Shown: positions 1 to 13,260, numbered from the stretch's first letter. The stretch: 24,000 nt of DNA from an uncultured Alphaproteobacteria bacterium (GCA_900079695.1 LT599022.1:142222-166221); one strand, 5' to 3'. Notes: a model not told the origin generated them from the letters alone. Made by a program: numbers and translations.

Positions 1-38
1 TCTCTATCGTCTTCAAGAAGTTCAATAGGCGCTAATCG

Positions 39-677
39 ATGCACATTTACGCATTTGGATCGGTCTGCCGCGGAGATATCGGGCCGGACTCTGACATCGA
101 CCTCCTGGCCATAGTGGAGGGATTCGATGACCGGTTCGATCTAGACGCCTATTCGATATACTCACGCCAACGCATCCAGGAAATCTGGGCTGAGGGCAAT
201 CCGTTCGCGTGGCACCTCTCGCTAGAATCTCGACTACTACATTCTTCGGATGGAACAGACTTCTTGGGCGAACTTGGTCGGCCAATGCGGTATGGTGCAT
301 GCGCACGCGATTGCAAGAAATTCCAAGAATTGTTCCTTGATGCCCGATCGTCCATGGCCAGTGGCAGGACTACCAAGGCGTTCGATCTGTCGATGGTTTT
401 CCTCGCTATTCGGAACTTCGCAACGTGTTTCTCACTTGGATGCCTAAATCGTCCCGATTTCTCCAGGCATGCTGCCATCCGTATCGGCGCATCCAGTTTG
501 GCGATACCTGCGGATGCCTATAAGATACTGGAACGGGCTCGCGTCCTATGTACCCGTGGGCAGGGCACGACGATCACCGACACAGAGGTCGAACTCGCCG
601 TCCGACAGTTTCCAGCCATCGACGAATGGATGATCCAGCTTCTATCGCAGGTAAAGGCGTCAGGCTATGGAGTATGA
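39..677 (+). CDS. Pol-beta-superfamily nucleotidyltransferase (minimal NTase N-terminus) with helical C-terminal domain
   Basis: ATG at 39 is preceded by an in-frame TAA (33-35). The N-terminus carries the minimal NTase signature FGSVCRGDIGPDSDIDLLAIV (G-S-x-x-R-G plus D-x-D). The ~150-aa C-terminal half looks helical and contains NRPDFSRH (R-x5-H). That is compatible with, but not proof of, a HEPN/KNTase_C-like domain. Confidence 0.75.
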   Translation: MHIYAFGSVCRGDIGPDSDIDLLAIVEGFDDRFDLDAYSIYSRQRIQEIWAEGNPFAWHLSLESRLLHSSDGTDFLGELGRPMRYGACARDCKKFQELFLDARSSMASGRTTKAFDLSMVFLAIRNFATCFSLGCLNRPDFSRHAAIRIGASSLAIPADAYKILERARVLCTRGQGTTITDTEVELAVRQFPAIDEWMIQLLSQVKASGYGV

Positions 678-969
678 ATTTAACAATCGGATTACCACCC
701 AACGAGTGCTGCTGAGGGTGATCAATCGAAAATCCTGGCCCGTCGAGGATCTGTTCGGCTTGTCCGCCAAAGCAATTGACAGGTGGGTTCGCGCCAATCA
801 ATTGAACCCACAGGCGGCAATCGTACGCATGGTCGTCGCCGTCTCAGACAAGCTCTTCTTTCTCGCGAACAAAAGCCAAGAGCAGATTTCCGAGCAGTAT
901 CAGTTGGTTCGCTCCGAGATTGTCGCAGCATGCCGCGACATAGAACGCGAACTCGGGTCTATCGCCTGA
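667..969 (+). CDS. Small hypothetical protein, possible helix-turn-helix, overlapping the NTase gene
   Basis: ATG at 667 overlaps the NTase stop (TGA 675-677) by 11 nt on the same strand. 100 aa. The segment VEDLFGLSAKAIDRWVRANQ resembles an HTH. No family recognised and the RBS is weak. Confidence 0.4.
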   Translation: MEYEFNNRITTQRVLLRVINRKSWPVEDLFGLSAKAIDRWVRANQLNPQAAIVRMVVAVSDKLFFLANKSQEQISEQYQLVRSEIVAACRDIERELGSIA

Positions 970-1153
970 ATCAAGCTCAATTCTTCTCTGCCTTTCGTCG
1001 TCTGATGTCCGCCGTTGGCGGCCGATATCGCCAAGTCATGCCTGTTTAGGCCATGACGGGGATGGCAATTTGTCGGTCCACCAATCTAAAGCTGGTCGTT
1101 CCGGTTTCCATCGTTTCTTTCCGAAACCAGACCGTCTTCTTCCGGCCCCATTT

Positions 1154-1220
1154 GGCCTAAGGGGATCGCGCCCCTCGCGCGGGGAGGGGCCAAGCGCTGC
1201 TTCGCGTCCTGAGGGGGCGG
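1154..1220. repeat. GC-rich 67-bp repeat, copy A (direct repeat with 3589-3655)
   Basis: ggcctaaggggatcgcgcccctcgcgcggggaggggccaagcgctgcttcgcgtcctgagggggcgg matches 3589-3655 at 62 of 67 positions by manual alignment, same orientation. It contains near-palindromic GGGG..CGCG..CCCC segments. Confidence 0.85.
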
Positions 1221-1357
1221 ACCTTCCCGTAAGCGTCAACGGATGAACGTATCAAAGCAAAGAGTTTGGCCTCCAACGTCTGCGTCCGTCCCCTGGTGGT
1301 CCCCGGTGACCTGAATGGGGAATGATACACAGCAGGCCGAGAATGGCATTATGTCGT

Positions 1358-1381
1358 GTCATATACTCGTGAGTATATGAC
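1358..1381. promoter_or_regulatory. Perfect 11-bp-arm palindrome (gtcatatactc-gt-gagtatatgac) followed by ATTTTT; operator or plus-strand terminator-like hairpin upstream of tcmP
   Basis: Arms 1358-1368 and 1371-1381 are exact reverse complements. A T-run follows at 1383-1387. It lies ~165 bp upstream of the tcmP start in an AT-richer spacer. The function is inferred only. Confidence 0.5.
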
Positions 1382-1545
1382 ATTTTTCGACATCGCGGAG
1401 CATCGCCAGAGCTCCGACCCCTGTGCATAAGTTGACATATTCGACGTATCGTTATGGTGTTAGTGTTATCGAGCGCCACCATGAATGATGGCGGATCTAA
1501 ATCCATGCTTGTGACGTACCTTAGGGAAAATAGGGGGGAAGCGAG

Positions 1546-2373
1546 TTGGGCAAACTGGTTGAGGGGGACGATGGGCTTCCCGCCGAAGACGTTGGTGTGT
1601 GGGCCAAGGAGAAACACGACTACCTATGCCGCTATATTGATATTTCGCGTGGGGCGCGTGCGAAGTATCTCGGTCCTGGAAAGGCAGGCGCGACCTACAT
1701 CGACCTGTTCTGCGGCCCAGGCCGATGCCAAGTGCGGGACACCGGAGAGTGGATTGACGGCGGTGTCGTCGCGGCTTGGAAGAAGAGCCAAGAAGGCCAT
1801 GCGCCGTTTTCGCAGGTCTTCATTGGCGATCTCGACATCCAACGGCGTCACGCCGCCGCTACTCGCCTGCACGCTTTAGGAGCACCGGTTGTAGAAGTTG
1901 ATGGCGCCGCACTCGATGCGGCGGAAAAAGTCATTTCCATGCTCAATCCCTATGGCTTGCACTTCGCTTTCCTCGACCCTTTCGACCTGGGAACGCTGAA
2001 CTTCGGTATCATCCTCACCCTTTCAAAGCTCAAGCGTATCGACATGCTGGTTCATCTCGCCCAGATGGATTTGCAGCGAAATGCCGTGACATACGCGACT
2101 ACCGACAATTCGTCGTTTGATACCTTCGCTCCTGGATGGCGAGAAAAAGTGTCCATCGCTTGCAGCCAGCAGGATCTCCGGCGGCAAATAATCCAATTCT
2201 GGCGCGATAAGGTTGCCAACCTTGGAGTGTGGCCGTCCACCGAGATGAGCCTACTCACGGGCAGCCATAATCAGCCGCTGTATTGGCTGCTCCTAGCGGC
2301 TAAGCACGAGCTCGCCCACAAGTTTTGGGTCACGGCCTCCAACGTTGAAGGCCAGGGGGCTTTCAGTTTCTAA
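1546..2373 (+). CDS. tcmP: Three-Cys-motif partner protein TcmP-like (TIGR04474-like), probable Rossmann/methyltransferase-like fold
   Basis: 275-aa ORF with a TTG start at 1546, a few nt after a GGGGGGA run; the start codon is uncertain. Recognised features are VWAKEKHDYLCRYI near the N-terminus, YIDLFCGPG (SAM motif-I-like) and FAFLDPFD (motif-IV-like). It sits directly against its canonical PF07505/DUF5131 partner. Confidence 0.7.
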   Translation: MGKLVEGDDGLPAEDVGVWAKEKHDYLCRYIDISRGARAKYLGPGKAGATYIDLFCGPGRCQVRDTGEWIDGGVVAAWKKSQEGHAPFSQVFIGDLDIQRRHAAATRLHALGAPVVEVDGAALDAAEKVISMLNPYGLHFAFLDPFDLGTLNFGIILTLSKLKRIDMLVHLAQMDLQRNAVTYATTDNSSFDTFAPGWREKVSIACSQQDLRRQIIQFWRDKVANLGVWPSTEMSLLTGSHNQPLYWLLLAAKHELAHKFWVTASNVEGQGAFSF

Positions 2374-3119
2374 GGCTGTGGCGCTTCCAGTTCCGGATAG
2401 TCGTTCCACGTGCGGCCGCGGAAAATGCGGCCGTTCGCTTTCTTGTGGCGTTTGATGCCATCAGCGCCCCAGCCACCCCACTGTTTGAAAAAGAACGCCG
2501 CACCGGCCGCCAAAGCCTGCACCTGCACGTTTGCCACCCACTCTTCGCGCATGGGGCGCGCCTTGGGGCCGGACTCGCCGCCAACAATGACCCAGTGGAT
2601 ATCGCGCAGATCGACGCGCCCTAAGTCTTCCAGCAGCGGTTCGACAGAGAGGAAGCGGATGTGAGCATCCACTTTGCGCAGGTGGTCGATGCGCGGAACG
2701 CCGTACTTCTTGTCCTCTACCGATACGCCCAACCACACGTTCTGCGGGCAAGCCCGCCGCGCGAAATACGCAGGCAGGCGCTCCGCGCGTTTGGTGAGGA
2801 TTTGATAGGTGTGCCGCGGCGTGGCCTCAATGATTGAAAATACACGGTCAAGAAATTTATCCGGTACATCCTCGTGAAACAAATCGCTCATGCTGTTGAC
2901 GAAGTAGGTGGTCGGCTTCTTTCGCATCAGCGGTTGTTCCAGCCGGTGTTCATGCAAGGTGAGTTTGAAGTCGTTCTCGTAGCCGGGCGCGCCCATCGCG
3001 TGCAGTCGCCGCGCCATCACTTCAGCATAGCAGTGCTTGCAACCCGGCGAGACCTTGGTACATCCGGTGGTCGGGTTCCAGGTCTGTTCCGTCCATTCGA
3101 TGGTCGATTGCGTCGCCAT
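2370..3119 (-). CDS. Phage Gp37/Gp68 family protein (DUF5131/PF07505), three-Cys C-x6-C-x2-C motif
   Basis: The frame is open to 3188, but the ATG at 3119 has AGGAGG (3129-3124) 4 nt upstream. The N-terminus MATQSTIEWTEQTWNPTTGCTKVSPGCKHCYA is the family hallmark and includes the three cysteines. The TAG stop at 2372-2370 overlaps the tcmP TAA stop (2371-2373). Confidence 0.85.
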   Translation of the reverse strand: MATQSTIEWTEQTWNPTTGCTKVSPGCKHCYAEVMARRLHAMGAPGYENDFKLTLHEHRLEQPLMRKKPTTYFVNSMSDLFHEDVPDKFLDRVFSIIEATPRHTYQILTKRAERLPAYFARRACPQNVWLGVSVEDKKYGVPRIDHLRKVDAHIRFLSVEPLLEDLGRVDLRDIHWVIVGGESGPKARPMREEWVANVQVQALAAGAAFFFKQWGGWGADGIKRHKKANGRIFRGRTWNDYPELEAPQP

Positions 3120-3132
3120 GCGACCTCCTATC

Positions 3133-3468
3133 TCACTGCGGTGCGCTGCCCGACGAACGGGCTTGTGCGGCTTCGGATGCAAAGGCATTTACCAAACGAG
3201 ATAATGCCGATCGCACAGGTCCTAACTTCGGGTCATCCAGGGATTCGCGCACGAGGTCAGCCAATTGTTCCGCTGATGGAGCCGTCTCGCTTTCAGTGGC
3301 ATGCACCAGACGCATACAGCGGTTGATGACGCTGATCGGCGGGCTGGCCTTGCCCCGCTCGTACTTGCTCACCATCGACTGATCAACCTCAAGCAAAGCA
3401 GCTAATTCCCTCTGGCTGCGCCCCTTACGTGCCGCCCGGATGATCTCTTCAACGCTGTTGAAGACCAT
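3133..3468 (-). CDS. XRE-family helix-turn-helix transcriptional regulator
   Basis: 111 aa. The HTH_3-type segment is RSQRELAALLEVDQSMVSKYERGKASPP. ATG at 3468. The stop lies 13 nt upstream of the DUF5131 start, so the two are probably co-transcribed. Confidence 0.85.
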   Translation of the reverse strand: MVFNSVEEIIRAARKGRSQRELAALLEVDQSMVSKYERGKASPPISVINRCMRLVHATESETAPSAEQLADLVRESLDDPKLGPVRSALSRLVNAFASEAAQARSSGSAPQ

Positions 3469-3545
3469 GTTCTTGCCACCACAAAAATTCGTTTGCAGAA
3501 TATTTTATCCATTTTATGCGCCTGATGCCTAGAAAAATTTCTCCA
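3469..3545 (-). promoter_or_regulatory. AT-rich upstream region of the XRE-DUF5131 operon with tandem ATTTTAT half-sites
   Basis: This is the most AT-rich stretch near these genes. ATTTTAT occurs at 3502-3508 and 3511-3517 (9-bp register). I could not assign convincing -35/-10 hexamers. Confidence 0.35.
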
Positions 3546-3588
3546 GGACGCGTCCCGATCTGCAGGGAGAGTGGCCCTCCGTCACTCA

Positions 3589-3655
3589 GGCCTAAGGGGC
3601 TCGCGCCCCTCGCGCGGGGAAGGGCCGAGCGCCGCTTCGCGTCGTGAGGGGGCGG
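3589..3655. repeat. GC-rich 67-bp repeat, copy B (direct repeat with 1154-1220)
   Basis: ggcctaaggggctcgcgcccctcgcgcggggaagggccgagcgccgcttcgcgtcgtgagggggcgg; 62 of 67 identical to copy A. Together the two copies bracket the lower-G+C tcmP/DUF5131/XRE segment. Confidence 0.85.
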
Positions 3656-3718
3656 GTCTCCCCGCCCTTCCTCCGCTGCGCTCCGTGCAGGGCGGGGGAT
3701 ACCCCTCCCGCCCCCTCA
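3645..3718. repeat. 12-bp inverted repeat tgagggggcggg / cccgccccctca separated by 50 bp
   Basis: 3645-3656 is the exact reverse complement of 3707-3718. The left arm is the end of repeat copy B. The element lies in the leader of the methyltransferase gene. Confidence 0.7.
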
Positions 3719-3784
3719 GCCCTTCCCCTTGCTACCCCCGATGAAGACGACGGGAAAAGGTTCACCAGTCAGGGGATAGCAGCC

Positions 3785-5218
3785 ATGCACACCGCTTCCG
3801 ACCTCATTCCGCGCCAGACTGTCACCCAGATCTGCGCACAGCGCGACAACGCCCTCGCGCTCTATGGTCGCGCGTTCGACGCCCTCGGCATCGCCAGCGA
3901 CGCATTCGCCGCCGCCGCCAAGGCCGTAACCGCCGCGTCGCCCGCGAACGGCAACGCCTACACCTATCCCTCCGAAGAGGCCCGCAAGCTTTTCCTCGCC
4001 GGGATCCAGCTTCCCGATCCGGACACTTTCCGCGATGCCGCCCGCCGCCTCACCGACGCCGCCGTGTGGGGGCGGATCATGGAGATGACCGACCTGGAGC
4101 GGCTGATGGACAAGACCGCGAAGGACAACTTCCGCCGCCAACTCACCACCGAACCGCCCGAGGTGACGGAGGGCAACGTGCGGGCGACGCTCGAAGAGAT
4201 GGCGCTGAACGCCGGAACCATCTTCCGGCGCGGGATCGCCACCGTGTTCTCCAACCTCGATCGCCGCTTCCGCAGCCACGACGGATGGAGGATCGGCAGC
4301 CGCGTCATCCTCTCCAACGCCTTCGACGACTTCGGCCACTGGAACCACTACCGCAATCACCGCGACACGCTGACCGACATCGAGCGGACGTTCTTCGTTC
4401 TCGACGGCCGCAAGCAGCCCGAGAGCTATGCGGGCGTCGTCGCCACCATCGACCAGGACCGGCGGCAGCACTGGCGCGCGCATCAGTCCGAGTGCGAAAC
4501 CGAGTTCTTTACGGTTCGGTGCTTCAAGAACGGCAACTTGCATGTCTGGTTCAAGCGCGGCGACCTGGTTAGCCAGGTCAACCGGCTGATCGGGGAATAC
4601 TACGGCGCACCGATCCCCGAGGATCGCGAGTCCGAAGACGACGGCGACCTGTTCACGCCGAAGACCACACCCGCCCGCAACTTCGGTTTCTTCCCGACGC
4701 CCGACGGTGCGGCCGAGCGGCTGTTCGATCGTTTTCCGCTCCGGCACGCCAAAGACGAACCGGCGCTGACCTTGTTGGAGCCGAGCGCGGGCACCGGCAA
4801 CCTCGCGCGCCGCGCCGTCGCGGCCGGGGCGGTCGTGGATTGCATCGAGATCCAGGGGAGCCTTGCCCAGGGTCTTCGAGGCGAGGGCATCTATCGCAAC
4901 GTCGTCGCCGCCGACTTCCTGGCGCTCAAGCCGAACCCGGCGGCGCTGTACGATCGCGTGGCGATGAATCCGCCCTTCGACCGAGAGCGCGACATCGACC
5001 ATGTGATGCACGCGCTGACCTTCCTGAAACCGGGCGGCATCCTCACCGCGATCATGTCGGCCGGCACCGAGTTTCGCGAGACGCGCAAGAGCAAGGCGTT
5101 CCGTGCGCTGATGGCGGAGATGCGGGCGGAGTGGTCCGACCTTCCCGACGGGTCGTTCTCTTCGGTCGGGACGAACGTCAACACGATCGTTCTTAAGGTC
5201 AGGAAGGGGGCAGCTTAG
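3785..5218 (+). CDS. SAM-dependent DNA (amino, NPPF-type) methyltransferase with ~290-aa N-terminal non-MTase domain (DUF4942-like by recollection)
   Basis: The frame is open from 3644, but those extra 47 codons are encoded by the GC-rich repeat. ATG at 3785 with AGGGGA upstream is preferred. The C-terminal part has motif I LEPSAGTGNL and motif IV NPPF. No adjacent restriction endonuclease gene is visible. Confidence 0.85.
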   Translation: MHTASDLIPRQTVTQICAQRDNALALYGRAFDALGIASDAFAAAAKAVTAASPANGNAYTYPSEEARKLFLAGIQLPDPDTFRDAARRLTDAAVWGRIMEMTDLERLMDKTAKDNFRRQLTTEPPEVTEGNVRATLEEMALNAGTIFRRGIATVFSNLDRRFRSHDGWRIGSRVILSNAFDDFGHWNHYRNHRDTLTDIERTFFVLDGRKQPESYAGVVATIDQDRRQHWRAHQSECETEFFTVRCFKNGNLHVWFKRGDLVSQVNRLIGEYYGAPIPEDRESEDDGDLFTPKTTPARNFGFFPTPDGAAERLFDRFPLRHAKDEPALTLLEPSAGTGNLARRAVAAGAVVDCIEIQGSLAQGLRGEGIYRNVVAADFLALKPNPAALYDRVAMNPPFDRERDIDHVMHALTFLKPGGILTAIMSAGTEFRETRKSKAFRALMAEMRAEWSDLPDGSFSSVGTNVNTIVLKVRKGAA

Positions 5219-5221
5219 GCC
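5018..5221. repeat. ~204-bp direct repeat, copy 1 (functional 3' end of the methyltransferase gene)
   Basis: Aligns with 6123-6327 with about 11 substitutions and one 1-nt indel by manual alignment. Includes the TAG stop at 5216-5218. Confidence 0.9.
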
Positions 5222-5307
5222 CCTCATATTCATGCTCTGTGTTTCGGCTTCCTTCTCCCCACGGATGCCCAGGATAGACATCCGGCAACCGAGATGTTGT
5301 GTTCAAA

Positions 5308-5356
5308 ATACACACTATCGTTGACTTCCCAAGAAACAGTGTGTATGTTATACACA
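5308..5356 (+). promoter_or_regulatory. hicAB promoter with operator-like inverted repeat
   Basis: TTGACT (5321-5326), 17-nt spacer, TATGTT (5344-5349). The 9-bp inverted repeat atacacact (5308-5316) / agtgtgtat (5338-5346) brackets the -35 and overlaps the -10. A third ATACACA half-site is at 5350-5356. Confidence 0.55.
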
Positions 5357-5374
5357 ATGTATGCGGAGTCAATT

Positions 5375-5578
5375 ATGTCGCCGAAACGCACCCCAGAGAC
5401 ACCCGAAGCCATCCGGAAGCGCCTTCTCGCCGATGGATGGACGGAGCGGAAGGGCAAAGGCGACCACCGGAATTTTCGCAAACCGGGTCATCACGTCGTA
5501 ACCGTGGACATGGGTGTACGCGAAATTCCATCCAGGACGCTCCGGAACATCTATCGTGTCGCGGGGTGGGTGTGGTGA
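5375..5578 (+). CDS. hicA: HicA-family mRNA interferase toxin
   Basis: ATG at 5375 with GGAG at 5365-5368. 67 aa. LLADGWTERKGKGDHRNFRKPGHHVVTVDMGVREIPSRTLRNIYRVAGW fits the HicA/YcfA pattern, including the conserved His. Confidence 0.85.
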   Translation: MSPKRTPETPEAIRKRLLADGWTERKGKGDHRNFRKPGHHVVTVDMGVREIPSRTLRNIYRVAGWVW

Positions 5579-5604
5579 GCGGCCGCCAGCTTGAGGAGAG
5601 TGCC

Positions 5605-6009
5605 ATGGCTACTGTGATTGCCTTGATCCATCGTGACGAAGGATCGGACTACGGCATCAGCTTCCCCGACTTCCCGGGGTGCGTCTCCGGCGGGGCGACC
5701 CTGGAAGACGCCTTCCGGCGCGGGCGCGAGACGCTGGCGGCGCATGTGGAGGCTCTGGTGGAGGATGACGAGGGATTGCCTGCCGTGCGCAGCCTCGACG
5801 CCCTCAAGGCTGACCTGGCGTTGGCCGAGGATTTCGCCGACGCGGAATTGATCGGAGCCATCGAGGTTGAGCTTCCGGGCAAGTCCAAGCGCATCAACGT
5901 GTCATTGGAAGAGCGGCTGTTGGAGCGGATCGACCGACGCGCGCAGAGCCTTGGGCTCAATCGGTCCGCATATCTTGCCGAAGCGGCGCGGCGCGAGATG
6001 GGGGGGTGA
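5605..6009 (+). CDS. hicB: HicB-family antitoxin with C-terminal ribbon-helix-helix
   Basis: ATG at 5605 with GAGGAG at 5593-5598. The N-terminus ALIHRDEGSDYGISFPDFPGCVSGGATLEDAFRRGRETL is HicB-like. The C-terminus KRINVSLEERLLERIDRRAQSLGLNRSAYLAEAARREM is CopG/RHH-like. Confidence 0.85.
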   Translation: MATVIALIHRDEGSDYGISFPDFPGCVSGGATLEDAFRRGRETLAAHVEALVEDDEGLPAVRSLDALKADLALAEDFADAELIGAIEVELPGKSKRINVSLEERLLERIDRRAQSLGLNRSAYLAEAARREMGG

Positions 6010-6122
6010 ATTGCTCCTGGAGCGGCGTTCCCGTCGCGTCATATACCCACGCAACTATGCCCCCGACTTCGTTGCCAGATTCGCCTGACTTCCAGCCATT
6101 TCGCCGCCTGACCCGGGTGTCA

Positions 6123-6324
6123 ACCTTCCTGAGGCCGGGCGGCGTTCTCACCGCGATCAATGTCGGTCGGCACCGAGTTCCGCGAGACGCGCAAGAGCAA
6201 GGCGTTCCGTGCGCTGATGGCGGAGATGCGGGCGGAGTGGTCCGGCCTTCCCGACGGATCGTTCTCCTCGGTCGGGACGAACGTCAACACGATCGTTCTC
6301 AAGGTCAGGAAGGGGGCAGCTTAG
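6123..6324 (+). pseudogene. Relic 3' fragment of the methyltransferase gene (copy 2 of the ~204-bp repeat), frameshifted
   Basis: Matches 5018-5218 but has an extra A (atcaatgtcgg versus atcatgtcgg). This breaks the frame relative to TFLRPGGVLTAI. There is no methyltransferase homology upstream of 6123. It ends at the equivalent TAG (6322-6324). Confidence 0.8.
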
Positions 6325-6337
6325 GCCGCCCTGCGTG

Positions 6338-6349
6338 CCCCCCCCCCCC
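6338..6349. repeat. Homopolymeric C12 tract
   Basis: Twelve consecutive C residues at 6338-6349. They lie between the methyltransferase relic and the ORF at 6428. Confidence 0.95.
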
Positions 6350-6427
6350 AGGCTTGTTTCCGGATAATCCCTTGACCGGCCGCGGAGCGCGAGCTTCATT
6401 TGCTCAAGAGGACGAGGAAGGCCGCTT

Positions 6428-6634
6428 ATGATCGAGACGCGCATCTGGAATGCCATCGACCACCTCGACACCCTCGAGGCGATCGCGGCCTACCTGCACG
6501 CCGCCATGGAGGACGGAGACCTCAGGCTGATCGACGCCGCGCTCGCAGATATCGCTCGCGCCCTTGGCGTAGGCGACGGCCTCGCGCATTCCCTGAACGA
6601 TCTTGTTAACCATGGCGCTGGCCCTCGCGACTGA
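6428..6634 (+). pseudogene. Truncated addiction-module antidote (TIGR02684-like) remnant, HTH region lost
   Basis: The 68-aa ORF contains LEAIAAYLHAAMEDGDLRLIDAALADIARALG. This matches the conserved N-terminal half of that antidote family as I recall it (..EAIAAYLNAALE.GDP.L...ALGDIARA.G). The sequence then diverges and stops where the HTH should be. No cognate upstream toxin gene is present. Confidence 0.5.
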
Positions 6635-6650
6635 GCTGTATTCGGCTAAC

Positions 6651-6680
6651 GATGTTATTTAATCATGATTAAATGACATC
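6651..6680. repeat. 30-bp near-perfect palindrome GATGTTATTTAATCATGATTAAATGACATC
   Basis: 13-bp arms around a CATG core. There is a single mismatched pair (T6/G25, which would be a G-U pair in RNA). The inner 18 bp (6657-6674) are a perfect palindrome. No T-run follows. Confidence 0.8.
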
Positions 6681-6834
6681 GTAGCACATTGCCCGTCAAC
6701 GTCCGCAACCACCCCCTTCAGGGCGCCGATTGAGCGTCATTTCCGGCAATGCGTAACGCTTATCTGTTTCCGTTCAGGCAACTCACGCTGGCGCCACACC
6801 GAGGGCTCAGGTTTCGCCGATAGCGATTCCCTGC

Positions 6835-6863
6835 TTGACACAGAATTCGCTGTCAGCGAATAT
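6835..6863 (+). promoter_or_regulatory. Candidate sigma70-type promoter for the relE-like/antitoxin operon
   Basis: TTGACA (6835-6840), 17-nt spacer, GAATAT (6858-6863), with alternative AT-rich -10 hexamers just downstream. It lies ~25-50 nt upstream of the ATG at 6886. Confidence 0.45.
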
Positions 6864-6885
6864 ACGGCATCGGGCGGGGGCGTGA

Positions 6886-7143
6886 ATGCGGATCGAATAC
6901 GAGACGAAGGCGATCAAGGACCTGAAGGCCATTACATCGGCTGATCGGGCTCGCATCATCGGGAAGATCGAGCAGTACGCCAAGTCCCCGCACAGCCTCG
7001 CCAATCAGGTGAAACACCTTGTGGGCTCGCCGTTTCATCGACTTCGGGTCGGCGATTATCGGGTGATTTTCTCGCTTACGGAAGAGGCTGTCGCGATCAT
7101 GGTGGTGATCCGTGTCAGACATCGGAGGGAAGCCTATGACTAA
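6886..7143 (+). CDS. RelE/ParE-superfamily type II toxin
   Basis: 85 aa. IEYETKAIKDLKAI...RARIIGKIEQYA...HLVGSPFHRLRVGDYRVIFSL..EAVAIMVVIRVRHRREAY is the typical RelE/StbE pattern. Confidence 0.85.
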   Translation: MRIEYETKAIKDLKAITSADRARIIGKIEQYAKSPHSLANQVKHLVGSPFHRLRVGDYRVIFSLTEEAVAIMVVIRVRHRREAYD

Positions 7144-7462
7144 GACCGTGACGATTCCGCAGGAAGAGTACGATGCGCTTCTCGCCCGGGTCGAGGACCT
7201 GGACGATATTCTGGCAGCCAATGCCGCGATGACCGGCGCGAGGTTGCCGCACGAGTGCGCCATGCGCATCATCGACGGCCAACACCCCACGCGGGTGTGG
7301 CGCGAGTATCGTGGTTTCAGCGCGTTGGCGCTCGCGAAGAAATCCGGCGTGTCGCAGGCGTATCTCAGCGAGATTGAAACCGGGAAAAAGCCGGGCTCGG
7401 TGGAAGCCTACAAGGCCATAGCCGAGGCTTTGAGCGTGCCGTTGGATGCCGTCGTACCGTAA
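7136..7462 (+). CDS. XRE-family HTH antitoxin (downstream of toxin, HigA-like arrangement)
   Basis: ATG at 7136 with GGAGGGA at 7124-7130. It overlaps the toxin stop (ATGACTAA). The C-terminal HTH is FSALALAKKSGVSQAYLSEIETGKKPGSVEAYKAIAEAL. Confidence 0.8.
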   Translation: MTKTVTIPQEEYDALLARVEDLDDILAANAAMTGARLPHECAMRIIDGQHPTRVWREYRGFSALALAKKSGVSQAYLSEIETGKKPGSVEAYKAIAEALSVPLDAVVP

Positions 7463-7530
7463 GGGGGCAACATGCCGGATCTCGATTTCTCCAGGGCGGA
7501 GCCCCTGGTCTTGCAGGCGGAGCGCGAGCC

Positions 7531-8226
7531 ATGGTGATCGAACTCACCGATGTGGCGATCCGGCGCGGCGGCAAGGGCGGGTTTCTGATGTCGGTGCCGA
7601 AGTTCGCGGTGGCGGCGGGGGAGGCGGTGGCGATCACCGGCGCGTCGGGCAGCGGCAAGAGCACGGTGCTGGATGCGTTGGGACTGGTGTTGCGGCCGGA
7701 GGCGGCGGCCGGGTTCCGCTGTTGCGGCGCGGATGCGGCGACGCTGTGGCGGGCGGACGATCTCGACGGTCTGGCGGCGGCGCGTGCGGCGGGGATCGGC
7801 TACATCCTCCAAACCGGCGGGTTGCTGCCGTTCCTGAGCGTGCGGGAGAATATCGGCCTATCCCCGTCGCTGCTGGGGCAGAAGGATTTCGCGCGGCACG
7901 TCGCGATGCTGGTGGAGGCGCTGGGGCTGGGGCCGCACCTCGCCAAGATGCCCGCACAGCTTTCGATCGGCGAACGCCAGCGCGCGGCGATCGCCCGCGC
8001 CCTGGCGCACCGCCCGGCGCTGCTGCTGGCCGACGAGCCGACCGCCTCGCTCGATCCGGTGAACGCGGGCAAGGTGCTCGACCTGCTGCTCGGTCTGGTG
8101 AAGGGGCTCGGCACCGCGCTGGTGCTGGTGAGCCACGACTGGTCGAAGGTCGCGAGCCTGGGCCTCCGGCGCTACGCCACCGCCAGCGCGACCGCGGGCG
8201 GCTGGCTGGCGGAGGTGGCGTCATGA
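7531..8226 (+). CDS. ABC transporter ATP-binding protein (LolD/MacB/FtsE-like)
   Basis: Walker A GASGSGKST, Q-loop ILQTGG, signature LSIGERQR, Walker B LLLADEPT, H-loop LVSHD. GGAG lies 8 nt upstream of the ATG. Confidence 0.9.
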   Translation: MVIELTDVAIRRGGKGGFLMSVPKFAVAAGEAVAITGASGSGKSTVLDALGLVLRPEAAAGFRCCGADAATLWRADDLDGLAAARAAGIGYILQTGGLLPFLSVRENIGLSPSLLGQKDFARHVAMLVEALGLGPHLAKMPAQLSIGERQRAAIARALAHRPALLLADEPTASLDPVNAGKVLDLLLGLVKGLGTALVLVSHDWSKVASLGLRRYATASATAGGWLAEVAS

Positions 8227-12285: not shown

Positions 12286-13260
12286 TCAGAAGGTGTGGCT
12301 GCGGCGGATCACCGCCGCCGCCGCGTGGCCGGGGGCGAGCCGGGCGGCCTCCTCGGCCGGGAGTTCCGCCTCGATCCTGCGGCCGCCCGCGATCTCCAGT
12401 TCCACGTGGGCGCGCGGACCGGCGGCGCGCACCGCCACCACCGTGGCGGCGAGGCCGTGCGGCGCGCCGGGCGGCGCGATGCCGATCTCGTGGGCGCGCA
12501 CATAGGCGACGCCTTCGGGGGTGTCGACGCGGTTGACCGATCCCAGAAACTCGCAGACGAACGGCGTCGCCGGGTGGGCGTAGAGCTCGGCGGGCGGCGC
12601 GATCTGTTCGAGCCTGCCGCCGTCGATCACCGCGACCCGGTCGGCGAGCTCCAGCGCTTCCTCCTGATCGTGGGTGACGAACAGGGTGGTGTGGCCGGTG
12701 CGGTCGTGGAGTTCGCGCAGCCAGCGCCGCAGTTCCTTGCGCACCCGCGCGTCGAGCGCGCCGAAGGGCTCGTCGAGCAGCAGCACGCCCGGATCGATGG
12801 CGAGGGCGCGGGCCAGCGCGACGCGCTGGCGCTGGCCGCCGGAAAGCTGCGCCGGATACCGGGCCTCGAAGCCTTCGAGATGGACGAGCCGCAACAGCTC
12901 GCGGGCGCGGCGGCGGATCTCGGCCTTGGGCGGGCGGGTGGCGCGCGGCCGCACCGAGAGGCCGAAGCCGACGTTGGCCTCCACCGTCATGGTGCGGAAC
13001 AGCGCATAGTGCTGGAACACGAAGCCGACGTTGCGGTCGCGCGCGTCGCGCCCGGCGACGTTTTCGCCGTCGAAGCGGATCTCGCCGCCTTCGAGGGTTT
13101 CGAGCCCGGCGATCGCGCGCAGGAGGGTGGTCTTGCCCGAGCCCGAGGGGCCGAGCAGCGCCACCAGTTCGCCGTCCGCCACCGTCATCGAGATGCCGTT
13201 GAGCGCCGGCCGCTCGCCGCCGGGGAAGGTCTTTACCGCGTTGTCGATGTCGATCCGCAT
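12286..13260 (-). CDS. cysA: Sulfate/thiosulfate ABC transporter ATP-binding protein CysA
   Basis: Walker [10 protein letters not shown], signature LSGGQRQR, Walker B LLLDEPF. It is the last gene of an sbp-cysT-cysW-cysA run. Confidence 0.9.

Follow-up and report, generated by a model that had tools for sequence, protein, structure and literature searches.

The window analyzed here is a 24,000-nucleotide (nt) stretch of DNA from an uncultured Alphaproteobacteria bacterium (GCA_900079695.1 LT599022.1:142222-166221). It carries a compact module of three genes: tcmP, encoding TcmP, a three-Cys-motif partner protein; a gene for a three-Cys protein of the DUF5131 (Gp37/Gp68) family; and xre, encoding an XRE-family helix-turn-helix (HTH) regulator. 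A prediction made earlier from this sequence (the original prediction) had read them as a discrete, self-contained nucleic-acid modification or anti-phage cassette, and all three genes were confirmed in the list of open reading frames (ORFs). tcmP and the DUF5131 gene are convergent, with 3' ends that share 4 nt (2370-2373), and the xre stop codon lies 13 nt from the DUF5131 start, the spacing that had been claimed. The window copy is an intact, typical member of the known TcmP/DUF5131 pair, to which XRE is a clade-specific addition. TcmP and DUF5131 are the obligate core pair of a mobile module, and in this genome the module is detached from the prophage end at which its closest relatives sit; the island around it shows features of plasmid leading regions and of toxin-antitoxin loci. 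The positions of the module and of the features around it are collected in Table 1.

Table 1. Features of the TcmP/DUF5131 module and its surroundings in the 24,000-nt window.
Feature	Position	Strand	Description
tcmP	1546-2373	+	TTG start, 275 amino acids; three-Cys-motif partner with an RlmJ-like class I S-adenosylmethionine (SAM) methyltransferase fold
DUF5131 (Gp37/Gp68) three-Cys protein	2370-3119	-	249 amino acids from M24 of the ORF; PF07505
XRE-family HTH regulator	3133-3468	-	111 amino acids; first gene of the xre-DUF5131 operon
Predicted xre-DUF5131 promoter	3498-3531	-	Sigma-70-like TAGGCA-18-TAAAAT (3531-3502), from a promoter scan
Terminator-like hairpin	3543-3558	-	TCGGGACGCGTCCTGG and then a T-run; lies just upstream of the xre promoter; weak consensus match
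Perfect 26-bp palindrome	1357-1382	.	TGTCATATACTC-GT-GAGTATATGACA; 12-nt arms 100% complementary; 164 nt upstream of the tcmP start
Left direct repeat	1154-1229	+	76 nt, 89% identical to 3589-3664; left arm only of the hairpin element
Right direct repeat (3589-3664) and rest of the hairpin element	3589-3784	+	GC-rich element of about 200 nt; outside the conserved module

TcmP matched TIGR04474 over model positions 2-258 of 263, scoring 166.2 bits where the cut-off is 53, and its ORF contains both YIDLFCGPG and FAFLDPFD, which the original prediction had taken for methyltransferase-like motifs I and IV. The match to the PADLOC model PDC-M41A was weak (33.3 bits, residues 14-182), and neither Pfam nor the sequence profiles of solved structures gave a match for TcmP. 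Searched against the PDB with Foldseek, its AlphaFold2 model (predicted local distance difference test [pLDDT], 90.4) resembled class I SAM methyltransferases, with template modeling (TM) scores of 0.47-0.54 to RlmJ (4BLV, 6QDX, 6QE0 and 7P8Q). These were the highest TM scores among the listed matches and bear out the RlmJ-like fold that had been expected, with E. coli RlmJ as the best match by this measure; the lowest E-values belonged to a geranyl diphosphate methyltransferase with TM scores of 0.31-0.34. Other structural neighbors were transfer RNA (tRNA) and ribosomal RNA (rRNA) methyltransferases such as Trm1 and PH1915. In the alignment, motif I (D53-x-F-C-G57-x-G59), D95 after strand 2, and L143-D144-P145 are conserved family-wide, extending to subtypes only 25-27% identical, and an N-terminal helix with W19, K23 and Y30 is also conserved. 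The conservation of these motifs across divergent subtypes speaks for an active enzyme. The active site of RlmJ, whose motif is DPPY, resembles those of DNA N6-methyladenine (m6A) methyltransferases (PMC3814359), and on its model and motifs TcmP would be an active SAM-dependent methyltransferase of this RlmJ or DNA m6A type. Run against 1.84 billion representative proteins, the TcmP profile retrieved 886 clusters at E <= 1e-10.

The DUF5131 protein most likely starts at M24 of its ORF (3119), because all 26 aligned homologs have an N terminus of the MATQSTIEWTEQ type. It contains GCTKVSPGCKHCYA (C20-x6-C27-x2-C30) and matches PF07505 over the full model (1-243) with 361.6 bits (cut-off, 28.9), so both hidden Markov models (HMMs) proposed as a check of the pair, TIGR04474 and PF07505, gave hits. 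The C-x6-C-x2-C motif claimed for this gene does not vary among homologs; C20, C27 and C30, together with C124 and G180-G-E-S-G184, are invariant in 27 sequences. PADLOC returned PDC-M41B (370.9 bits) and PDC-M30B (374 bits) and PHROGs returned phrog_2045, whose function is unknown, while no nuclease family match was obtained in Pfam, NCBIfam, PHROGs or PADLOC. Through the PADLOC matches of DUF5131 and TcmP, the pair is already on a list of phage-defense candidates (PDC-M41). A match to TIGR04471, "radical SAM mobile pair protein A" (E of 3.6e-27, 95 bits), was far under the equivalog cut-off of 355. RadicalSAM.org lists DUF5131 as a subgroup, megacluster 5-2, whose neighbor 5-3 contains spore photoproduct lyase (PMC9477430). 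PDB sequence profiles gave no match for DUF5131, lyases included, and a BFVD fold search found generic methyltransferases only. Judged from family classification and motifs, membership of the radical SAM superfamily is plausible.

The evidence for a core pair comes from a survey of 29 IMG/VR loci and 80 genome loci with TcmP, the latter with one genome per species. Relatives were considered close when their TcmP was at least 65% identical to that of the window (27 genome loci and 13 viral contigs); homologs of 65-83% identity occur in beta- and gammaproteobacteria. DUF5131 lies beside TcmP in 28 of the 29 IMG/VR loci. It is present in 73 of the 80 genome loci, and within 200 nt of TcmP in 65 of them, an adjacency also seen at 25 of the 29 viral loci. 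Genomes carry the pair in three orders (convergent, TcmP then DUF5131, and DUF5131 then TcmP), and an adjacency that outlasts rearrangement argues for a functional pair. When neighbors were clustered, only TcmP and DUF5131 recurred generally, XRE being found in 17 loci, DUF499 in 14 and DUF1156 in 11. A wider conserved system was ruled out, as the other neighbors are heterogeneous. The sporadic, mobile occurrence that had been attributed to the pair was borne out.

Among close relatives, the module comes directly after prophage lysis and tail genes in 14 of the 27 genome loci and 11 of the 13 viral contigs, and in the genome loci the xre gene is kept in 20 and a lysozyme gene in 14. The prophage order is BR0599/Phage-tail_3 tail genes, DUF2793, DUF6127, lysozyme, XRE, DUF5131 and convergent TcmP, and TcmP is often exactly at the predicted end of a viral region of about 40 kb in IMG/VR. 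In sampled close loci without lysozyme, the module abuts GroEL, RpoN or ClpB, or else BrnA, Gp49/HigB-like or Fic genes, or lies in a Mu-like prophage; the chromosomal and toxin-antitoxin settings of these relatives resemble that of the window. In distant alphaproteobacterial clades the neighbors form a mixed set of housekeeping genes, and HTH, integrase and phage genes are few among them. The original prediction had taken a uniform prophage setting as a sign against its reading; such a setting describes about half of the nearest clade, and the wider family is not uniformly prophage-borne.

Genes upstream of TcmP vary among the first contigs examined and are defense-like. This cargo includes a DUF1156-DUF499-TIR set, an MmeI-type methyltransferase with AAA_15, RNA ligase and HNH genes, and a helicase-MZB-PLD-Vsr set. 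Giant DUF1156 and DUF499 proteins, often with TIR, SMODS or SLATT_4, are encoded directly upstream of and co-directionally with TcmP in 11-14 of the 80 genome loci (among the loci with these proteins are L001-L003, L048, L053, L056, L057, L062, L068 and L086), and the distance from the upstream gene to the TcmP start is 20 nt in both L001 and L004 despite different upstream genes. The region upstream of TcmP looks like a prophage cargo hotspot, and the association of the pair with defense may come partly from its fixed position beside this cargo slot. The defense-island context proposed for the module holds insofar as defense genes and toxin-antitoxin loci are often adjacent, but this may in part be a by-product of the hotspot. 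In S. meliloti, the TcmP gene SMa2243 adjoins the defense gene hna and is co-upregulated with it (PMC12445080).

The third protein, XRE, matched HTH_3 (E of 5e-11) and HTH_31 (E of 2e-10) and, weakly, the PADLOC model "Control_protein" (E about 0.006). Homologs with 54-84% identity are encoded 13-16 nt upstream of DUF5131 in 20 of the 27 close genome loci. Thirteen homologous xre upstream regions have TAGGC, GCATAT, ATAAAAT/ATAAACT, ATATGC and GTGCAT blocks in common, and these conserved blocks form an inverted repeat, CATAT-N10-ATATG, that straddles the -10 element. With at most one mismatch allowed, 15 of 27 distinct relatives have the inverted repeat 46-51 nt ahead of the xre start codon, and L006 has it at a distance of 60 nt; of the 24 matches found in the relatives' loci (1.97 Mb), 21 are such xre-promoter sites. 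DNA homology of the window to L004 extends to 3531. At the window promoter the operator copy is degenerate (GCATAA-N10-ATATTC, 3498-3519, 2 mismatches). The palindrome upstream of tcmP holds the sole exact CATAT-N10-ATATG in the 24 kb, where 0.06 would be expected even with one mismatch. Autorepression of xre-DUF5131 by XRE is the likeliest explanation of these predicted sites, and XRE probably also binds the predicted operator upstream of tcmP at this locus. The proposal that the cassette is under its own repressor gains support in this way from the promoter with a palindromic operator conserved among relatives. The terminator-like hairpin (the scan gave 4 sites, versus 2.7 expected) would insulate the xre operon from upstream transcription. 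Read from the sequence, the module retains its ribosome-binding sites along with the 4-nt and 13-nt spacings.

Close relatives also include natural variants in which the pair has been altered. In L008-L010, DUF5131 is 95% identical to that of the window and the TcmP body is of another subtype, with 27% identity (TIGR04474, 192 bits). The swapped TcmP (L008 2333-3247) shares its first 11 residues, MGKLIDGDDGL, with the window TcmP, which indicates a recombination junction inside the 5' end of tcmP. In L013-L015, XRE and DUF5131 are 99-100% identical to those of L016 and only about 100 C-terminal residues of TcmP are kept. All three diverge at a single point inside tcmP (L016 position 3500); L014 and L015 share adjoining genes and L013 differs, and the break reflects either natural TcmP loss or assembly branching or chimeras. 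Furthermore, an IS5 element lies between TcmP and DUF5131 in L065 and L074. From these cut or separated variants, DUF5131 seems to be tolerated without TcmP, which weakens a strict toxin-antidote model.

In isolated phages, DUF5131 occurs in 175 records, at identities of at most 56% and mostly from phages of Mycobacterium and Gordonia. In Gordonia phage Bakery (L132 921-3475), a PF00145 C5-cytosine DNA methyltransferase of about 525 amino acids (gp63) abuts DUF5131 (gp64), and in Mycobacterium prophiT36-2a (L133 805-3861) a tiny DNA-binding ORF (gp15) lies between the methyltransferase (gp14) and DUF5131 (gp16). The DUF5131 genes of Bakery, prophiT36-2a and phage Squirty are all among replication genes. 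A DUF4326 gene follows DUF5131 in Squirty (L131 2413-3737) and prophiT36-2a. Gordonia phage Confidence has an HTH protein that overlaps the start of DUF5131, and in Synechococcus phage Ssp-JY39 DUF5131 and TcmP (TIGR04474, 216 bits) form a convergent pair next to a recombination gene with the annotation Bet. The window TcmP had no tblastn match in 50,697 phage records; absence of TcmP from isolated phages was ruled out by the divergent TcmP of Ssp-JY39, found by HMM. One phage record labels its DUF5131 gene spore photoproduct lyase, and this label is unverified. DUF5131 is thus associated with methyltransferases from more than one family, and two of these are DNA enzymes. No better hint of a DNA substrate is available, and the association suggests a wider theme of a DNA methyltransferase plus DUF5131 that goes beyond TcmP.

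The surroundings of the window copy differ from what had been proposed. The module had been described as a discrete insert in a lower-G+C segment of about 2.4 kb framed by two direct 67-bp repeats. The G+C content between the repeats is indeed low relative to the chromosomal remainder of the window (0.566 versus 0.704), but that of the left flank is equally low (0.534), and 1-7462 as a whole has 0.598. G+C at third codon positions is about 0.65-0.74 in the three module genes versus about 0.91 in chromosomal genes. Since the left flank is as G+C-low and the whole of 1-7462 is foreign-looking, composition sets no boundaries for a 2.4-kb insert; it is the entire region 1-7462, with its foreign-looking composition, that is a foreign island. 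In BLAST comparisons of the window with related loci, the unit conserved elsewhere (78-82% nt identity) is 1535-3531 only; it begins 11 nt ahead of the tcmP start and reaches the xre promoter, and the repeats lie outside it. Family searches of the island proteins found no integrase in 1-7462, and none lies between the repeats; no phage structural genes are left in the window, and no close plasmid relative of the whole window was found.

The framing repeats exist, although they measure 76 nt at 89% identity, and they do not delimit an insert: they are copies of a dispersed plasmid hairpin element. Within the window, a 24-nt repeat core (at most 3 mismatches) matched at the two repeat sites and nowhere else, with 0 matches expected by chance. 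Similarity between the repeats ends where the hairpin apex of the right copy starts, which marks the left repeat as a truncated copy. As single-stranded DNA, the element at 3589-3784 forms a long hairpin (z scores of -3.7 on the + strand and -4.0 on the - strand); 101-nt windows around the repeats fold no better than shuffles, and only the full 200-nt right element does. It ends directly before the ATG of a DUF4942 methyltransferase gene (3785). Related copies occur in 57 alphaproteobacterial plasmids, mostly conjugative or mobilizable and often with several copies each. Sphingobium baderi plasmid pDE2 (L128) has three copies of about 240 nt that are 92-93% identical (4949-5196, 7901-8190 and 12502-12736), each set directly against a start codon; the genes concerned are of leading-region type, namely DUF3768, a large ParB-like gene and one for an ArdC-like zincin, and the stretch that holds them also contains a DUF4942 gene. 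In a Defluviicoccus plasmid the element likewise stands ahead of an ArdC-like gene. A scan of metagenomes gave a single contig, L126 (1885-2051), with the element beside unrelated ORFs, and the element also lies in L127 (6001-6159). An exact scan of 185,579 species genomes gave no match to the repeat core, and Rfam found no RNA family in window positions 1-8000, the hairpin element included. The element may act as a promoter or leader in leading regions, perhaps in single-stranded form. Attachment (att) sites or target duplications were rejected as an explanation of the repeats, given identity of only 89%, a left copy that is half an element, and copies in 57 plasmids upstream of unrelated genes. 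Near-identical end repeats and an integrase, as looked for in an integrated island, were not found, the repeats being 89% identical and 1-7462 lacking an integrase.

The rest of the island shows a mixed content. Apart from the module and the hairpin element with the DUF4942 methyltransferase, it comprises a nucleotidyltransferase pair, HicAB, the duplicated 3' end of a methyltransferase gene, a fragment of an antidote gene, and ParE with an HTH gene; family searches identified the DUF4942 methyltransferase, HicAB and ParE/HTH as the neighbors of the module. Near the window edge, a nucleotidyltransferase gene (NTP_transf_2, 39-677) overlaps by 11 nt an ORF of 100 amino acids without a family match (667-969). 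The nucleotidyltransferase weakly resembles two antitoxin models, Hailong HalB and MntA, and the two genes may be a toxin-antitoxin or defense pair. The HicA/HicB cassette (5294-6009) is flanked by a direct duplication of about 205 nt (5018-5221 and 6123-6327) in which 168 nt agree at 96% and 37 nt at 89%. What is duplicated is the 3' end of the DUF4942 methyltransferase gene, and the second copy is a gene fragment (ORF 6160-6324). This duplication looks like a scar of cassette insertion or recombination. A short ORF at 6428-6634 belongs by its match to the dnstrm_HI1420 antidote family and lacks an obvious toxin partner. At 6886-7462, a ParE toxin gene overlaps the HTH_3 gene that follows it. 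These genes sit where the island meets chromosomal ABC-transporter genes.

We tentatively favor a two-enzyme, SAM-dependent DNA modification system of mobile elements, with XRE as its autorepressor, as the explanation of the module. DUF5131 would be a [4Fe-4S], radical-SAM-related enzyme acting with TcmP on one common nucleic-acid substrate. DNA would be the likeliest substrate, because in actinophages DUF5131 is coupled to C5-cytosine DNA methyltransferases in replication-gene regions. The pair would modify bases covalently in a methyl-dependent way and so mark element and host DNA, while XRE would repress its own DUF5131 operon and, at this locus, probably also bind the palindrome upstream of tcmP. 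The least certain part is the role, which might be a protective or self-marking DNA modification for mobile elements, in the sense of anti-restriction or epigenetic immunity.

Several observations weigh against this reading. Motif IV of TcmP is, family-wide, L143-D144-P145-[F/Y/H]; it has a single proline, its aromatic residue comes one position early, and it deviates from (D/N)PP(Y/F); by this departure from DPPY, TcmP resembles the RlmJ/DNA m6A class without passing its motif test. The resemblance to RlmJ would suit an RNA target equally well, and the common substrate of TcmP and DUF5131 is something that we infer. On the side of DUF5131, Pfam gave only PF07505 and GP88 and no PF04055 (Radical_SAM) match even at an E of 5, and the cysteine spacing is CX6CX2C rather than the canonical CX3CX2C. 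Its structural model has a pLDDT of 70, and Foldseek matches to it were all at E >= 0.03; in favor of a radical-SAM-type enzyme, the model has an alternating beta/alpha core, and the weak matches were to TIM barrels and included the radical SAM enzymes PqqE and AprD4. The degenerate xre operator of the window means that regulation may have decayed. In a literature search over 7.7 million papers and bioRxiv, no biochemical or genetic study of TcmP, DUF5131, PDC-M41 or PDC-M30 was found. Finally, the convergent layout, the defense-rich surroundings and the status of PADLOC candidate suit a restriction-modification-like system as well.

Such a system, serving defense or addiction, is the strongest competitor, although we consider it unlikely. 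TcmP would methylate self nucleic acid, DUF5131 would damage incoming DNA that is unmodified, and XRE would be a C-protein-type controller that delays the effector. The layout agrees with that of C-protein-controlled type II systems, in that the methyltransferase converges on an operon whose HTH gene precedes the effector and the HTH promoter has a palindromic operator, and the weak "Control_protein" match of XRE, the PDC-M41B/PDC-M30B matches of DUF5131 and the weak PDC-M41A match of TcmP point the same way. DUF1156/DUF499, TIR, SMODS and SLATT cargo lies right beside the module, the S. meliloti TcmP gene adjoins hna (PMC12445080), members of the family form solitary two-gene islets among housekeeping genes, and the TcmP body swap beside a 95%-identical DUF5131 resembles specificity exchange. 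However, DUF5131 has no nuclease family match, and L013-L015 keep intact XRE and DUF5131 though TcmP is reduced to about 100 amino acids. In the examples examined, phage DUF5131 is among replication and recombination genes, which is unexpected for a host-protecting restriction gene, and the link to defense is possibly guilt by position because the module flanks the prophage cargo hotspot.

Modification of RNA appears improbable. TcmP would then methylate an rRNA or tRNA base and DUF5131 would perform a second, radical step, so that the pair retunes host translation to the needs of the phage or element. The best structural neighbors of TcmP, namely the 23S rRNA m6A methyltransferase RlmJ, Trm1 and PH1915, agree with this idea, and many radical SAM enzymes act on RNA (e.g., RlmN/Cfr, MiaB and TYW1). 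Nevertheless, the active site of RlmJ is itself like that of DNA m6A methyltransferases (PMC3814359), the alternative partners of DUF5131 are DNA C5-cytosine methyltransferases, and no tRNA or Rfam feature lies nearby.

It is slightly less probable still that the window copy is a stranded remnant of a decayed prophage or conjugative element, inert in this genome. The window without phage structural genes, the degenerate xre operator and the rearrangement scars nearby (half a hairpin element and a duplicated methyltransferase 3' end) would fit decay, but the three ORFs are full length with every family-invariant residue, the gene spacings of 4 nt and 13 nt are retained, as are ribosome-binding sites, and other genomes carry the module in small toxin-antitoxin islands. 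DNA repair, with DUF5131 reversing lesions in the manner of spore photoproduct lyase and TcmP as an accessory, is the least probable of all: the 5-2 placement beside lyase cluster 5-3 in RadicalSAM.org and the unverified lyase annotation in one phage record speak for it, but sequence profiles match no solved lyase, and the obligate methyltransferase partner and the exchange of partner families would be left unexplained.

If the favored reading of a mobile-element DNA modification system is true, a radical-SAM step would be added to mobile-element DNA modification or immunity, and the travel of the pair with defense and anti-defense cargo would be explained, with the warning that this association may partly reflect the hotspot next door. 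A bolder claim, which we regard as doubtful, is that DUF5131 is a radical-SAM-type enzyme acting on DNA with a dedicated methyltransferase, TcmP or, in actinophages, a Dcm-like enzyme. The result would be either a new methyl-dependent DNA hypermodification employed by phages and conjugative elements or the first restriction-modification-like system with a restriction arm based on radical chemistry and XRE as controller. TcmP/DUF5131 is a recognized yet biochemically blank pair found in hundreds of phages, prophages and islands. The window and its relatives supply a compact, intact and apparently self-regulated 2-kb cassette (1535-3531) with a defined predicted operator, and partner-swapped and TcmP-truncated natural variants are available among the relatives. 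The locus is an entry point of moderate interest rather than a discovery in itself.

Comparison with known systems places the module in this context. C-protein-controlled type II restriction-modification systems, such as Esp1396I and PvuII, share with it a convergent methyltransferase, an effector gene preceded by one for a small HTH protein, and a palindromic operator at the HTH promoter. They differ in that the effector of the module is radical-SAM-like and without a nuclease signature, TcmP is outside the recognized DNA methyltransferase families, and natural variants exist without an intact TcmP. RlmJ, the 23S rRNA A2030 N6-methyltransferase (4BLV and 6QDX) and best structural match (TM scores of 0.50-0.54), has in common with TcmP the class I fold, a conserved N-terminal helix (K23 in TcmP), the glycine-rich motif I and an acidic-Pro motif IV, whereas sequence identity is 7-10%, motif IV is DPPY in RlmJ versus LDP[FY] in TcmP, and the extra helices come after beta5 in TcmP (residues 173-225) and at residues 47-98 in RlmJ. 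With radical SAM proteins (TIGR04471 and the spore photoproduct lyase subgroup), DUF5131 shares a Cys triad, and its GGE-like motif, its modeled beta/alpha core and its TIGR04471 similarity may be further likenesses; it departs from the superfamily in having CX6CX2C for CX3CX2C, no PF04055 match and no convincing fold match of the present model.

The actinophage modules (Bakery gp63-gp64 and prophiT36-2a gp14-gp16) also place DUF5131 beside a DNA methyltransferase and a small DNA-binding protein. Their partner is a C5-cytosine enzyme of about 525 amino acids, co-directional and in an early phage region, whereas that of the window is TcmP, convergent and in a prophage-end or island setting. With the TcmP/three-Cys pair itself (TIGR04474 plus PF07505; PADLOC PDC-M41), the likeness extends to both HMMs, the adjacency of the genes, the Cys triad and the sporadic mobile spread. 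The window copy differs from that pair in details only, namely the added XRE, the 33-bit match to M41A and its detachment from the prophage.

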